Shown: positions 18,246 through 62,169 of the stretch, piece after piece
Layout: every line of letters starts with the position of its first letter
Position numbering within the stretch: the stretch's first letter is position 1
Source of the DNA: Thermoanaerobaculia bacterium
Lineage (GTDB): Bacteria > Acidobacteriota > Thermoanaerobaculia > Gp7-AA8
Length of the DNA stretch: 64,000 nucleotides
Assembly (NCBI GenBank): GCA_035276475.1
Contig: DATELQ010000048.1
Location: 87-64,086, forward strand
Direction: 5' to 3'
Program-made: the position numbers and the translations under genes
The notes under the pieces: model-generated
Seen by the model: only the letters and a program-made list of their open reading frames with translations
Told to the model about the DNA's origin: nothing
Database searches by the model: none

Positions 18246-19025
18246 TCAAGCATGCTGCGGTCGTTGGAAGAAATCGACGAGCTTTCCGTACCACTCCAAA
18301 TGCGGATGAAGGTGGTCCGAGATACCCGGCACCTCGAATTTCACCGGAATCGGGTGATTGAGGTTCCATCCGACCAACCCGGCGTGATCGGTGTGCCACG
18401 TTCCAAGTGGTCTACCGAAAGCCGTCGCAGAGTGAACGGTCACTACGCCGTCGCTCGGAGCCTCGACTCCGAACCTCTCCGCGATCTCATTGAATAGGAT
18501 GGAGTCGTCCGCCTTGTCCCCGGCGATGCAATACGTTGGAACTGTGATTCCGGCCTCGCGAATCAGACTCGTCGCCTCATCAGTCAAACGCGACGCTTCA
18601 CTCTCAGTCAGATCGTGCAACGCCTTCTGATGGATCTTGATCCCGACCGCGATCGGCACCATGCCATCTTCGGATTCGCCGTGTTCCAATCGATTGGCGA
18701 CCACCGATCCAAGATATGGCGTCCCGATAGTAACGAGTGCCGCGACGCGCCCTGCGATGCCGGAAAGATTCTTCGCGATCGCGTACCGCGCATCAAGGCC
18801 GCCCATGCTGTGCGCGAAGATGTGCACCTTCTCATCTCTTGCTTCCGCGGCAATCCTGCCGGCAAGCTCCTCCGCGCGATCGGAGACCTTGCCGATCGCA
18901 TCGACCTCCGTCGCGGTCACGGTCACGTGGCGCGTGTGCTCGAGATGCTTCTTCACGCCGTTGAAGTACTCGAACCCGGCGATGCGGTCGAAGCCAAGCA
19001 CGCCGTGGGCAAGGATGATGTGCAT
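18246..19025 (-). CDS. Alpha/beta-hydrolase, lipase/esterase-like
   Basis: Nucleophile elbow FAHSMGG. N-terminal HG oxyanion context (MHIILAHGVLGF). Size and layout resemble small bacterial lipases. Confidence 0.75.
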   Translation of the reverse strand: MHIILAHGVLGFDRIAGFEYFNGVKKHLEHTRHVTVTATEVDAIGKVSDRAEELAGRIAAEARDEKVHIFAHSMGGLDARYAIAKNLSGIAGRVAALVTIGTPYLGSVVANRLEHGESEDGMVPIAVGIKIHQKALHDLTESEASRLTDEATSLIREAGITVPTYCIAGDKADDSILFNEIAERFGVEAPSDGVVTVHSATAFGRPLGTWHTDHAGLVGWNLNHPIPVKFEVPGISDHLHPHLEWYGKLVDFFQRPQHA

Positions 19026-55116: not shown

Positions 55117-56646
55117 ATGTCTGTAATTCGGAGAATTGTGCTCGTAGATGAGCCGCGGCATTCCCTATGGCAGCAGGTCACTGCGGAGCTCGACCGTATC
55201 TTGTCGGCGGCCGCCGCAGAGGTTCAGAGCGATATCGAAGTTCGAATTGCGTTAAATCCTGTTTCCGAGGTTCCGACGTGCTTCATCGGTCATGCGGCTT
55301 CCCGCGAGTGGAAAACCCCGATTGACGATGCCAACGGAGAGCACTGCTGGATACTTACCTCAGGTGGTGCACTCTCCGACGAAGAGGTGGTGTTCGACGG
55401 CGACCGGGTTCTCAGACTCTCCCATGTCTATAGCCGGGTGCCTCACTTTCACGATTGGTTTTTGGCTTGGATTCATGCAGGACTGGATCGACAACATTTT
55501 CGTCAGATTGCCGGCGAGCTCATTCAACCTACCAGCCGCAACGTCATTTCCGTTTGCCGCCGTCTGCAGATTACTGCGACATCGTTGCATGCGATCACCG
55601 GCAGCGCCCTCGCTGCGGTACGGAGCCGACCTTCGGCTGAAGCGGAGATTATCGACTGGGCGGTGGAAGGCATTCAACTTGCGCTCGCCGATACGGATCT
55701 TCACGAGGTCAACGTCGATTACACATTCCTGCGTTTCGCCGTAAAGGACAAGGATCTCTCCAAACGGTTGCGACACGTTTTTCACCCTCGAACGGGTGCT
55801 GTCGTCCATGCCGTCGAATGGACACGTGCCGCCGGCGATCTTGAGCGACTGGACAAGGCGCTGGCGAACGGCTTGTCTTGGCTAGCCGCGGTTGTTTCCG
55901 GAGAGCTGAACCTCCAGGATCAATTGTGTAAGCTCGAAGATCAGTTACGGGTGGTTGTTTTTGCGTTAGCGCGTTTGGCCCGTGGCCGCAGCATTCGTTC
56001 TTCTCGTTTTGTTTCCATCGTCCAGTCCGAGTGGGCTGTGCATGTACTGCGAACCGCTGTCGCGTTGACATATCCGCCTGCCGATGATAGCCGCTGGTTG
56101 ATCGGCAACTATGGTCATACACCGCTGCATCCCGGTGCGTTGCAGGAAACGGCTTTGGTGCGAGCGGCAGCGGACGTGGAGCTTTTGAGGCGACTGCTGT
56201 CATTTGATGTCGAAAGGGCATCCGTTGTTCATGAAGGCAACAATCGACTAATGGCCATTGTGCCTATGATCGATTTGATCGATCGGTTCCGTGCGCCTGA
56301 ACACCTTCTGCGTCGACAGAACGCCTTGCAGCGTTTGACAGACATCGCCGCGAATTTGGAATCGAACCCGCCGCGGATCATCGAGTTCCTGACGACTCTC
56401 GAAACTCGTGGCTTCCAGATGACAACTGTTTTCCGCAGAGAATCCGAGGATGCCATCGCTGCGCTCCGGCGATTGCCCCGGCACCTCGGCATCCTGAAAT
56501 CAAATGATTCTAGAGAAGCGGTCGAGGCGATCCGTGCCGATATGAGGCTGATACGCAATACCCTATCGACAATTCGTTCGACGCAGACCTTTGGCTTTTC
56601 CGTCGTCGATCTTCACTCGTCATTGATGGACGGGCGAGGCCGCTGA
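55117..56646 (+). CDS. Hypothetical 509-aa protein, no recognisable domain (islet gene 1)
   Basis: Only long ORF on this strand here. Its stop overlaps the next gene's start (TGATG). Mostly helical-looking sequence. No motif I can name. Confidence 0.7.
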   Translation: MSVIRRIVLVDEPRHSLWQQVTAELDRILSAAAAEVQSDIEVRIALNPVSEVPTCFIGHAASREWKTPIDDANGEHCWILTSGGALSDEEVVFDGDRVLRLSHVYSRVPHFHDWFLAWIHAGLDRQHFRQIAGELIQPTSRNVISVCRRLQITATSLHAITGSALAAVRSRPSAEAEIIDWAVEGIQLALADTDLHEVNVDYTFLRFAVKDKDLSKRLRHVFHPRTGAVVHAVEWTRAAGDLERLDKALANGLSWLAAVVSGELNLQDQLCKLEDQLRVVVFALARLARGRSIRSSRFVSIVQSEWAVHVLRTAVALTYPPADDSRWLIGNYGHTPLHPGALQETALVRAAADVELLRRLLSFDVERASVVHEGNNRLMAIVPMIDLIDRFRAPEHLLRRQNALQRLTDIAANLESNPPRIIEFLTTLETRGFQMTTVFRRESEDAIAALRRLPRHLGILKSNDSREAVEAIRADMRLIRNTLSTIRSTQTFGFSVVDLHSSLMDGRGR

Positions 56647-57686
56647 TGACGACTGTCCATATTCCAGTTAATCCGTTCACTACAGATACTGCAAGGTTGT
56701 CGGTAGCAAAAATCATCGATCGTGACGCGGAACTGTTGAAGCTGCGCGAAGCGCTTTTGCTGCATCGCGAGAACGTGCTTGTGGTTGGTGAAAGCGGGAT
56801 CGGCAAAACGTGTTTGTTGCGTAAGTTCAGAAACGAATTGCAGGCGCAGAACGCCGTTTCCATTCTCATGGTCGAGATTGGCCCGGATGCATTGTCGGAG
56901 GGGGCGTCGAAGTTTCTCGCGAACGTAACGCTCCGTATCTTCAGCGCGGCGGCAGCTCGGCTCTTCAACTTATCGCCGTCCGCACTGCTTACCGGCTTAA
57001 TGTCGGAGATGGATATTACCAGGCGTACCAAAAGCAAGCTAAATCACTTCCTGAAGCTGTTCGCACTCATTAGGCCCGATGTTACGAAACTCACAATCAG
57101 TCGCACGAATGATGCGGGGGTATCTTTTGGCGCGTCCGTCAAGCTTGCCGAGACGATGTCGACCACGCGCGACGTCGGTGGGCTGTCGTCGTTCGAGTTC
57201 ATGGAGCTGACGGCCGAACTACTTCAGATCCTCGCACAAGACGGCATCACACAAGTGGTCGTTTTCGGGGACGAAGCAAATCATTTGAAACCCGAAACAG
57301 AGGTCGAACTGATCTTGCACAATTTAGAAGCTTTCGCGGAGAGGAACGTTTTGTTCGTGCTCACCATGAGACCTGATTTGCTCCGTGCCACATCCGCGCT
57401 CCACGCCGCCTTCCCCTCGCTATGCGAAGTGGCTGCATTCAGCTACGAGAAGCTCGAGGAGTTACTTCGAGCATATGCCTTATGTGAATGCTCGGCCACG
57501 CACGTCAGCTTCAGCGAATCGATCGCTCAAGAGGTCCTTCAGGTTTCGCAGGGCCATCCACGGCAGGTTCAGATTCTAGGGCAGAAAATGTGGGCACGGG
57601 CGTTCGCCGCCGAGCGTGCGATTGCGACGGTTGAAGACCTACTCCACGCGATCCGGGAAGTCTATACATTGTCGCCCAGGCTGTAA
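56646..57686 (+). CDS. P-loop NTPase, AAA_16/Orc1-Cdc6/STAND-like (islet gene 2)
   Basis: IDRDAELLKLREALL...VLVVGESGIGKTCLLRKF (Walker A) and VVVFGDEANHL (Walker B). About 346 aa with no effector domain. Confidence 0.8.
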   Translation: MTTVHIPVNPFTTDTARLSVAKIIDRDAELLKLREALLLHRENVLVVGESGIGKTCLLRKFRNELQAQNAVSILMVEIGPDALSEGASKFLANVTLRIFSAAAARLFNLSPSALLTGLMSEMDITRRTKSKLNHFLKLFALIRPDVTKLTISRTNDAGVSFGASVKLAETMSTTRDVGGLSSFEFMELTAELLQILAQDGITQVVVFGDEANHLKPETEVELILHNLEAFAERNVLFVLTMRPDLLRATSALHAAFPSLCEVAAFSYEKLEELLRAYALCECSATHVSFSESIAQEVLQVSQGHPRQVQILGQKMWARAFAAERAIATVEDLLHAIREVYTLSPRL

Positions 57687-58648: not shown

Positions 58649-58724
<76 letters not shown>

Positions 58725-58738
58725 CCGAGTCGATCGAG

Positions 58739-59095
58739 CTAGTGACGACCGCTGCGATGCAGCGGCTTCGTGCCGGTCTTCTTAGTCTCCGGATTCACAT
58801 TTCCCTTTGTCGACCAGTTGTCGCTCTTCGTGTCATTCGCACGCGTTCGATTGTGAGGCTCGACGCGCGTCCCTTTCTTCGTGACATAGCCGTTCACGTG
58901 GACCTTGTCGGGGGTGCTTGTTCTCGTGCCGTGGACCTGTTTGTGGCCGCTTCCGTGTGCGCCGCCGCCTCGGGTGTGACCGTTGCCTCGGGTATGACCG
59001 CCGCCGCGGCGGCCGCCTCCATGTCCGCCGCGCGCGAACGCGGGAACGGCAATCAAGACGATCGACATCAGGCATGCGGCGAGTGCTTTGGTCAT
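58739..59095 (-). CDS. Small secreted Gly/His/Lys-rich protein
   Basis: Signal peptide (LMSIVLIAVPAFA), then GGHGGGRRGGGHTRGNGHTRGGGAHGSGH. Confidence 0.5.
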   Translation of the reverse strand: MTKALAACLMSIVLIAVPAFARGGHGGGRRGGGHTRGNGHTRGGGAHGSGHKQVHGTRTSTPDKVHVNGYVTKKGTRVEPHNRTRANDTKSDNWSTKGNVNPETKKTGTKPLHRSGRH

Positions 59096-60570: not shown

Positions 60571-60807
60571 CTACATCGTCAACCGCTCAATGTCCGCGAC
60601 GACCGACTCGCTCGGGCCTTTGCCGATCATCACGTTGAGCATGGGTCGGATGTCTTCGATGAGCCTGGGGACGTGCGCGGCGGTCAAGTGCTCCTGATCG
60701 GGGACGCCGACCTTCTTCGCGAACGAGCGGAGGGTCATCTTGGCCACGTGCGGCCCGAGGTGGACGGACAGCTTGGAGAGCACCGTTTCGGCGATCGGCT
60801 CAGGCAT
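60571..60807 (-). CDS. Small hypothetical protein
   Basis: Overlaps the upstream 7-TM gene end by 8 nt. No motif recognised. Confidence 0.4.
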   Translation of the reverse strand: MPEPIAETVLSKLSVHLGPHVAKMTLRSFAKKVGVPDQEHLTAAHVPRLIEDIRPMLNVMIGKGPSESVVADIERLTM

Positions 60808-61504
60808 CGGCGCTCGCTCCTTTCATGGCCCGATGCGCGGCGAACGACTGCGTCGCGGCCGCAGCGGCGTTGAACATCGTGGCCACGGCCACGCCGGCCG
60901 TGCGGATCAGGCGCAGCGCGTCGGCGCCGCCGCCGAACGCGCCGGCGATCGACGTCGCGCCGGTATTGATCATCCATCCGACGACCGAGACGGCCAGAAA
61001 GCCGAAGATCCAGGAGAGCCGGCCGCCGCGCAGCGCCAGCGTACTCATGGCCAACGGGGCGATGAGGGTAAAGGTGATGACGTCGGCGAGCACGGAGATC
61101 AGCGCGCCGGGCTGCAGCGAACCGGAACGGAGTGCCTGCCACTGCGCCAGGAGCGAGACATGGCAGAGCGCGATCGCCACCGCCAGCGCCGCCGCCGTCA
61201 GGAGGATCCGCTTCGCCGCCGACATCAGGTATCCGATCCCCGCGGCGGAGAGCACGCGCGCCATCAGCCAGTACGCGGCGATCTGTGCGAGGTTCGCGGC
61301 GATCAGCGTGGCGTTCAGCGCCAGCGTGGCGTCGGGCGCGGCGCGGCGGAGGACGTAGTTGACGAGGAGAAGCAGAAACTCGAGCGAGAAGAGCGCCCAG
61401 GCCCGGCCGAGGTGCTCGTGCCACCAGGCGAACTTCGCCGCCGCCGTGCCGGCTGCGACCGCAGCGAGCGCGTAGAGAACGATTCGGACGAGGAAGAACG
61501 ACAT
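60800..61504 (-). CDS. Hypothetical 7-TM membrane protein
   Basis: Seven hydrophobic segments by eye. No recognised family. Confidence 0.6.
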   Translation of the reverse strand: MSFFLVRIVLYALAAVAAGTAAAKFAWWHEHLGRAWALFSLEFLLLLVNYVLRRAAPDATLALNATLIAANLAQIAAYWLMARVLSAAGIGYLMSAAKRILLTAAALAVAIALCHVSLLAQWQALRSGSLQPGALISVLADVITFTLIAPLAMSTLALRGGRLSWIFGFLAVSVVGWMINTGATSIAGAFGGGADALRLIRTAGVAVATMFNAAAAATQSFAAHRAMKGASADA

Positions 61505-61575
61505 CTCGCCATCATAGATGAACGATGCCGTTCACGCATGGGGGGGTAGTCGGCGCCGCCGATGCGAGAGTGCAT

Positions 61576-61882
61576 GTCCATGGACGTTCAAACGCGTCGG
61601 ACGAGCGCATTCTCCGGCGCTGCGGACGCACGATTGCGTCGGGATCACGGAAGCGCGCAATCCATGGACATTTTCGTCGTCGATTCGCGTCCGCGTTCGG
61701 CATCCATGGACGTTGGATCGCGTGTGCGACCTCCGTCAACGCAATCCATGGACGTTCGAATGCTTCGACGAGCTCAGTTTCTGATGCTTTCGGACGCGCG
61801 ATTGCGTTGGAATCGCACAAACACGACATCCATGGACGTTTAAATGTGATCCGGCGTCAGATTCACGACATCCATGGACATT
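61576..61882 (+). repeat. Phased array of six 13-bp motifs RTCCATGGACRTT (42-bp register)
   Basis: Copies start at 61576, 61660, 61702, 61744, 61828 and 61870. Spacings are 84, 42, 42, 84 and 42. Degenerate GGACG-containing units occupy the skipped registers at 61618 and 61786. Confidence 0.85.
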
Positions 61883-61926
61883 TAATCGATACCGGAGGAC
61901 AACCTCGTGCGTCGTATTGATGAATC

Positions 61927-62169
61927 ATGACGCTACGACGTGGCATCGATCGAGACGCAGCACGCTTCGGCGCGATCGTTCGACGTCTGCGCGAGAAGAA
62001 AGGCTGGACTCTCGTTCAGTTCGGACGAAAAGCCGACATGCATCCCTCGTATCTCAGCACTCTCGAACGGGGAGCCAACACGCCGTCGCTGACGTGCATC
62101 CTTCATTTGGCAAAAGTCTTCGACGTCGAGGCGTGGACGATCATTGCGGAGATTGAAGGTCTGTCGTAG
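61927..62169 (+). CDS. XRE-family helix-turn-helix transcriptional regulator
   Basis: LREKKGWTLVQFGRKADMHPSYLSTLERGANTPSL is a typical HTH_3 core. 80 aa. Confidence 0.8.
   Translation: MTLRRGIDRDAARFGAIVRRLREKKGWTLVQFGRKADMHPSYLSTLERGANTPSLTCILHLAKVFDVEAWTIIAEIEGLS

Follow-up and report, generated by a model that had tools for sequence, protein, structure and literature searches.

The controller (C) proteins of R-M systems exert autogenous control from operators upstream of their own genes, acting at a C-box of about 35 bp in which two palindromic operators lie around a GTG spacer, typically 17–18 nt from the start codon; the genes are often leaderless and are not always R-M linked (PMC2632904). 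In F, the sopC locus is built of 43-bp direct repeats, 12 in number, and each of them contains a 16-bp inverted repeat to which SopB binds (PMC3177203). RcoLS20, an XRE autoregulator from pLS20, recognises an 8-bp motif that is present in 7 + 4 copies within a divergent promoter region; it binds them cooperatively, and both represses and activates its own promoter (PMC4207663). The phage P2 C repressor is a small HTH protein that reads direct rather than inverted repeats (PMC2995052), which shows that XRE-like dimers can read sites in the same orientation. We describe a row of phased sites that has features in common with each of these systems. It was found in a 64,000-nucleotide stretch of Thermoanaerobaculia DNA (hereafter the window) and occupies, as originally predicted, the 422-bp divergent gap between a 7-TM ORF (60800-61504, - strand) and an XRE ORF (61927-62169, + strand). 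The features of the locus are the following.

60800..61504, - strand: membrane-protein gene, 234 aa, polytopic according to hydropathy, divergent from the XRE gene
61522..61563, + strand: possible ninth, degenerate register with TTCACG-CATGG at 61531-61541; doubtful, 7 of 13 positions fit
61564..61899, + strand: array proper, eight 42-bp registers, delimited from the register print-out, repeat families and composition
61576..61588, + strand: site F1, GTCCATGGACGTT, exact pattern match
61623..61639, + strand: unit I1 in a skipped register, CGGACGCACGATTGCGT, repeat family D3
61660..61672, + strand: site F2, ATCCATGGACATT, exact match
61702..61714, + strand: site F3, ATCCATGGACGTT, exact match
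61744..61756, + strand: site F4, ATCCATGGACGTT, exact match
61791..61807, + strand: unit I2 in a skipped register, CGGACGCGCGATTGCGT, repeat family D3
61828..61840, + strand: site F5, ATCCATGGACGTT, CCATGG at -97 from the XRE ATG
61870..61882, + strand: site F6, proximal, ATCCATGGACATT, CCATGG at -55 from the XRE ATG
61907..61930, + strand: upstream mini-ORF of seven codons, GTG...TGA, VRRIDES, read from the sequence
61927..62169, + strand: XRE-family HTH gene, 80 aa, Pfam HTH_31 and HTH_3, presumed binder of the array

A pattern scan of the 64-kb window returned six exact + strand matches to RTCCATGGACRTT, starting at 61576, 61660, 61702, 61744, 61828 and 61870, precisely where the original prediction had placed them, and no exact copy elsewhere in the window. 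With up to two mismatches allowed, the sole match beyond the array is at 19017; the observed count was not reached in any of 100 dinucleotide shuffles, all of which stayed below 10 matches. Half of the CCATGG hexamers in the window (6 of 12) fall in the array, the GC content of which is 57%, versus 67% for the window. All start-to-start spacings measure 42 or 84 bp, as had been claimed (84, 42, 42, 84 and 42 bp), and the order of the 42-bp registers is F1, I1, F2, F3, F4, I2, F5, F6. The two skipped registers do hold related units, since I1 and I2 have CGGACGCnCGATTGCGT in common (at 61623-61639 and 61791-61807) and belong to a pair of 51-nt repeats that are 78% identical and offset by 168 bp. 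Unit I1 is without the CCATGG core, has kept only the arm-like flanks, and reads as a degenerate or inverted unit. The weaker match reported one register upstream, ACGCATGGGGGGG at 61534, agrees with the 13-mer at 7 positions only and cannot count as a site; conservation of positions 61522-61563 is uninformative because the DNA there is 95% conserved with L154, a locus from a sister strain (loci are denoted here by L numbers).

The sequences between the motifs had been described as unrelated to each other, which is roughly correct for the six F units taken together: outside the 13-mer, their identity is 0.31 versus a null value of 0.256 (z 2.8). It does not apply to the neighbouring units F3/F4 (0.52) and F5/F6 (0.59), which have the most similar flanks, a remnant of old tandem duplications. 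The core, by comparison, is identical at 13 of 13 positions in all F sites of the window, with the flanks at 31% identity. The combination of invariant cores with near-random flanks indicates that the cores are under strong constraint and that the remainder has drifted since an old tandem duplication.

Related genomes had been suggested as the place to look for the same array and neighbours. When 185,579 species genomes were scanned for two copies of TCCATGGAC placed 42 bp apart, 117 loci were obtained, among them L061, L066 and L070 from Thermoanaerobaculia/Acidobacteriota, in which the array precedes an XRE homologue with 48–53% identity; further loci were added by genomic-context look-ups and a metagenome scan. 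The array was thereby found at about 20 non-identical loci, on soil-metagenome and Thermoanaerobaculia contigs, as a row of CCATGGAC on the XRE strand directly upstream of an XRE orthologue (48–99% identity), and the neighbours otherwise differ. In the window and L154 the flanking genes code for a membrane protein and an SDR; elsewhere they include LivFG-type ABC transporter genes with a gene for an HD-CE/HATPase protein, HEAT-repeat/T2SSE ATPases with PilT-, PilX- and pilin-like genes, or accC, CorA, Usp and an eCIS-core protein. Between these contexts, DNA similarity is confined to the stretch from within the array to the XRE stop codon; the conserved unit is therefore the array plus the XRE gene, which is the only gene that consistently accompanies the array among the compared loci. 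XRE homologues that have no array are present in L129, L133 and L140. A Thermoanaerobaculia MAG contains, at L112 3300-3700, about seven CCATGGAC-like sites in both orientations and with irregular spacing, downstream of an amidohydrolase-like gene and with no XRE gene alongside; it may be an orphan or decayed array.

The 234-aa membrane protein has 5–7 hydrophobic segments by hydropathy and matches no family in Pfam or NCBIfam. Its gene adjoins the array only in the window and in the sister strain L154, and on this ground it was rejected as the partner of the array. The proposal that the array is the divergent control region of the 7-TM and XRE genes was therefore too local; the 7-TM gene is an incidental local neighbour outside the conserved module, although in this genome it may still come under the control of the distal sites. 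In L154 the membrane-protein gene and the array are separated by an insertion of about 360 bp, and an RRM_1 gene with a 77-aa ORF (about 800 bp) is inserted exactly at the XRE/SDR junction. At this junction in the window, the 3' end of the XRE ORF shares 29 bp with that of the convergent SDR ORF (62141-62169).

Several further observations concern the surroundings of the module, here and elsewhere. In the window, a low-GC stretch (55117-57686, 0.57 versus about 0.67) lies just upstream of tRNA-Phe (58649-58724) and contains two ORFs, one of 509 aa for which Pfam gave nothing and one for a 346-aa AAA_22/AAA_16 (weak NACHT) ATPase; the stretch is possibly an island or a defence-like cassette. 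Directly after the tRNA gene is a 118-aa ORF (58739-59095, - strand), Gly/His/Arg-rich (GGHGGGRRGGGHTRGNGHTRGGGAHGSGH) with a signal-like N-terminus, for which Pfam gave no match. In L122/L123, L134, L136, L137 and L139, which represent several XRE clades, the module is flanked by HEAT-repeat proteins that are fused to, or encoded before, T2SSE (PilB/PilT-type) ATPases. Pilin-like genes (PilX_N, N_methyl) are close by, and an ancestral link of the module to a type-IV-pilus-like cluster is possible. In L120 (4265-7132, also in L121) the gene for a 955-aa HD-CE / HATPase_c_3 protein begins 22 bp after the XRE gene; the protein matches the C-terminal part of the PADLOC model RT_UG24 (DRT), which makes the gene defence-like, and it is possibly under XRE control. 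The sequencing run X1, from the sample in which the whole window stretch is present, contains two more modules, one L121-like and one accC-linked and L061-like. The module contigs 1, 4 and 5 of this run have similar assembler depths (13.5, 16.9 and 16.6), so that one genome may carry several modules with the same core site.

Across the loci, 100 sites with 80 adjacent spacings were surveyed. Spacings of 42 bp occur 40 times, 43 bp 13 times, 41 bp once, 84–87 bp 20 times, 127–129 bp three times and 170 bp twice, with exceptions of 66 and 105 bp, and 95%–98% of the spacings are within 2 bp of a multiple of 42–42.5 bp, a distance that corresponds to four turns of B-DNA. Arrays carry 6–9 sites and span 250–400 bp. 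The extended consensus, caTtCACG.cATCCATGGACATttGAATGcG (also written aTTCACGnnATCCATGGACAyyTGAATg), is a near-palindrome of about 28 bp with the outer arms ATTCA/TGAAT; the left arm is one base longer, which makes the site directional. In the XRE-linked arrays the sites are always on the XRE strand and the last CCATGG is at -55 or -34 from the ATG, the -55 position being common to the window, L154, L118, L155, L134, L139 and L145. The arrays of some clades consist of forward sites and inverted, degenerate copies (GTGAGCCATGGACAC / GTGTCCCGGGCTCAC) in turn, one every 42 bp; comparable alternating units are present in L134, L136 and L145, and the I units of the window look like the same kind.

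The closest comparison is with L154, whose XRE protein is 99% identical and whose flanking genes are 91–95% identical at the DNA level. When its array is aligned with that of the window, the cores are invariant, the rest is about 80% identical, and there are two indels of exactly 42 columns; this pattern is a phylogenetic footprint. The same kind of array length difference is seen in contigs from other soil samples, and the exact 42-bp indels imply that unit number changes by whole units with the register kept. Between XRE clades, the bases beside the invariant CCATGGAC vary (ATCCATGGACGTT, ATCCATGGACAT, GTGAGCCATGGACACATGA and GTGATCCATGGACAC), a distribution that fits co-evolution of protein and site but is confounded by shared ancestry.

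The XRE protein stands alone, with 80 aa and matches to Pfam HTH_31 and HTH_3; a protein search returned 30 relatives (73–99% identity) in soil metagenomes and a Thermoanaerobaculia MAG. Compared with solved structures, the profile of the family is best matched by C.AhdI (E 1e-9) and C.BclI (E 1.3e-9), followed by SinR and DdrO. The PADLOC models that match the protein are HTH_VI, capH and Control_protein (E 2e-6 for the last). An AF2 model is a five-helix bundle with pLDDT 88.6, for which C.BclI is the best fold match (TM 0.79–0.83), with ClgR, C.AhdI and SinR as further matches. Both the sequence comparisons and the model place the protein closest to the R-M controller (C) proteins.

Based on these observations, the array is probably a helically phased, autoregulatory operator array to which the adjacent XRE protein would bind, the array and the gene together forming a self-contained module. 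This reading is supported by the linkage of the array to the XRE gene in unrelated contexts at a fixed strand and distance from the ATG, and autoregulation in particular by the C-like fold, given that the C family acts on operators upstream of its own genes. In the mechanism that we propose, the XRE protein would bind each 42-bp unit, and the 42–43-bp spacing of four helical turns would bring the bound proteins onto one face of the DNA. The proximal site, 34–55 bp before the start codon, would lie where, judging from position, a promoter is expected. Occupancy of the row would then set transcription of the XRE gene and of a context-dependent neighbour, here possibly the divergent membrane-protein gene, and gain or loss of whole units would tune the threshold of the switch. 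The part of the original prediction that proposed a same-face, multi-site array of the adjacent XRE protein is thus strongly supported by the conservation of linkage, strand and ATG distance across contexts; the parts that offered an iteron or a centromere are not, for reasons given below. An 80-aa HTH dimer normally covers about 20 bp, and direct cooperativity across 42 bp is accordingly not obviously within reach, a gap that the 28-bp extended unit may, speculatively, narrow. No additional target sites for the XRE protein were seen outside the array in the 64-kb window.

A bolder and rather unlikely extension is that the module is a portable nucleoprotein device, in which the XRE protein would polymerise on one face of 6–9 phased sites and unit number would act as a threshold, a timer or a decoy sink, or would serve the silencing or insulation of a neighbouring accessory gene; several such modules might coexist and cross-talk. 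Candidate accessory genes beside the modules are type-IV-pilus-like clusters, the defence-like HD-CE/HATPase gene and transporters.

Between the array and the XRE gene, the window has a mini-ORF of sequence GTG CGT CGT ATT GAT GAA TCA TGA, the stop codon of which overlaps the XRE ATG (TCATGA), with GGAGGA at 61894-61899, 7 nt ahead of the mini-ORF. L154, L155 and L118 retain the mini-ORF (M/V-R-R-I/T-D/G-E/K-S), which begins with ATG or GTG, but do not retain the GGAGGA. The mini-ORF resembles the N-terminus of the XRE protein (MT.RR.ID). Its 21 nt match the difference between the -55 and -34 positions of the last site in different clades. With regard to a leaderless mRNA, TAnnnT is found 6–7 nt before the XRE ATG in L066, L070, L134, L136 and L145; the window clade has a seven-codon uORF instead, and SD-like sequences precede the XRE gene in other clades. 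A promoter scan of the region gave no sigma-70 consensus promoter, and -10 candidates chosen by eye were dropped as evidence since they differ inconsistently between clades. The sequencing runs that contain the locus are DNA metagenome runs only.

The genome scan also recovered arrays from other phyla. Arrays with a 42-bp period around GTCCATGGAC are present in MAGs of Tannerella, Prevotella, Polyangiaceae and Eggerthellaceae (Bacteroidota, Myxococcota and Actinomycetota), and a similar perfect 42-bp repeat is present in one viral contig. These are near-perfect repeats of the whole unit, with no XRE homologue and no neighbours common across genomes, and were rejected as relatives; they are probably coincidental products of the search pattern, unrelated to the array of the window. 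Many other matches in the scan are coding repeats of 21 bp or 15 bp. The 42-bp repeats of the Tannerella MAGs are at L022, L025, L029, L049, L072 and L115, those of the Prevotella MAG at L009, L014 and L040, and those of the Polyangiaceae MAG, which are near conserved unknown genes and a Cas4-Cas1 fusion, at L007, L026 and L081. Repeats of the GTCCATGGAC palindrome (for example GGAATTGTCCATGGACAATTCC) occur at several loci per MAG, often at contig ends.

The operator reading has to be weighed against explanations in which the row of sites serves another molecule. An unlinked factor (a nucleoid-associated protein, a global regulator or a CCATGG-specific, methylation-sensitive switch) might bind the array, with the XRE gene merely regulated. 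A core that is a short CCATGG-containing palindrome, invariant across XRE clades that are only 48–53% identical, is what such a factor could leave behind, and 42 bp is a wide spacing for an 80-aa HTH dimer. We nevertheless consider this explanation unlikely, since the array is tied exclusively to this XRE family, the XRE gene is the sole conserved partner across contexts, the flanking bases vary with XRE clade, and the concentration of 6 of the 12 CCATGG copies of the window in the array is unlike a genome-wide site. The array might instead act as RNA, either a structured 5' leader or a small RNA, in which self-complementary UCCAUGGA or GGA motifs would pair or would sequester an RNA-binding protein in a CsrB-like manner. 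Its constant orientation relative to the XRE gene and the self-complementarity of the motif would suit such a role, as would the conserved mini-ORF between the array and the ATG (with an SD in the window), which implies that transcription starts at or before the last unit. Yet positions 61400-62000 have no Rfam match at E≤1 (matches at the gathering threshold of Rfam 15 in the window are two tRNAs only), the XRE strand does not fold better than shuffled sequences (z -1.5), and the value for the opposite strand (z -2.4) is driven by the palindromic cores. Moreover, the B-DNA-like phase of 42–43 bp is conserved with whole-unit indels, the spacers drift with no visible compensatory pattern, and near-palindromic units are as expected for duplex DNA bound by a dimer, all of which makes an RNA role quite improbable.

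The remaining explanations fare worse. The resemblance in form to sopC of F, the low GC of the module (57% versus 67% for the window) in varied contexts and a tRNA-Phe 3 kb upstream could suggest a sopC-like centromere, or replication iterons, of an integrated plasmid or mobile element, both of which had been offered in the original prediction. However, no ParA, ParB, Rep, integrase or relaxase gene was found in the 3' part of the window or within 3–4 kb of the other modules examined. Neither the XRE protein nor the array has close relatives in 72,556 plasmids (PLSDB) or in IMG/VR viral contigs, the identity of the XRE protein to PLSDB entries being at most 43% with no match to the array. There is also no AT-rich unwinding region, and the neighbours are ordinary chromosomal genes, so that this origin is very improbable. 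The sites might also be no more than a neutral tandem repeat or a dispersed REP-like element that lacks a specific function, which would be in line with the existence of 42-bp tandem repeats of the same 8-9-mer in unrelated phyla and one viral contig. Such repeats, however, are near-perfect over the whole unit and have no XRE gene, whereas here the cores are invariant and the flanks near-random, with register, orientation and ATG distance kept across XRE proteins down to 48% identity; the motif is not dispersed in the 64-kb window, all exact copies being within one array, and neutrality is extremely improbable. Finally, ORF 61525-61920 stays open for 131 codons and could be taken to encode a protein of 14-aa repeats, the more so as gene callers place ORFs over the arrays of relatives (48–189 aa on either strand, for example L118 3573-3977, L119 2878-3291, L154 914-1483 and L122 3663-3809). 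This protein has next to no chance of being real and was excluded as a candidate. GC3 is 0.55–0.63 in all four array ORFs versus 0.76–0.90 in neighbouring genes, 43-bp spacings shift the frame of the sites in 8 of 10 related arrays, stop codons interrupt every frame of most arrays, and opposite strands are called for identical DNA in L118 and L119; Pfam gives PAAR_motif only, below threshold (E 0.0025). The region is non-coding, and the hypothetical proteins called over the arrays are in all likelihood artefacts of annotation.

In their textbook form, autoregulated XRE and controller proteins work as switches with two operators. If the operator reading is true, a row of 6–9 operators locked to a four-turn phase, with a unit number that varies between strains, would be an unusual form of an ordinary gene switch, and would provide a ready system for studying the effects of site number and helical phase on cooperativity and threshold behaviour, as well as the roles of small orphan C-like regulators outside R-M. 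The module is conserved across a poorly studied soil phylum, the Acidobacteriota, and it yields a rule for annotation, as spurious ORFs of 130–190 aa are repeatedly called over such arrays. No account of an operator row phased at 42 bp for a C-like XRE protein came up in a limited search of the literature.

Comparison with the known systems places the locus between several of them. Like the XRE protein of the window, the R-M controller proteins C.AhdI, C.BclI, C.PvuII and C.Esp1396I are stand-alone XRE HTH proteins, of 74–82 aa. Their C-box, however, is a single element of about 35 bp, whereas here 6–9 sites follow at intervals of 42–43 bp; the sites are unlike the C-box GACT..AGTC, the nearest CCATGG is at -34 or -55, and no R-M gene or domain was found among the called or scanned neighbours at the loci examined. 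The gene is thus C-like in size and fold and has neither the C-box nor the R-M linkage of that family. With sopC of F the array shares a tandem period of about 43 bp, one inverted-repeat HTH site per unit (here a near-palindrome of about 28 bp) and a variable number of units. In sopC, whole units are repeated, on a plasmid, beside sopAB and with a binder of the ParB family; here the core alone is conserved, the context is chromosomal rather than plasmid or prophage, there is no partition NTPase or ParB partner, and the neighbouring regulator is an 80-aa XRE protein. As to iterons, there is no Rep gene, and the array, at 57% GC, contains no AT-rich block. RcoLS20, from a conjugative plasmid, is tetrameric and larger than the XRE protein of the window; the motifs that it binds have irregular spacing and are divided between two operators, which form a loop over 75 bp, with no 42-bp periodic row. 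The phage P2 C repressor acts on just two repeats, as part of a phage immunity switch. The array belongs to none of these classes and is closest in form to sopC of F and closest in logic to RcoLS20 and to the autoregulation of C proteins.
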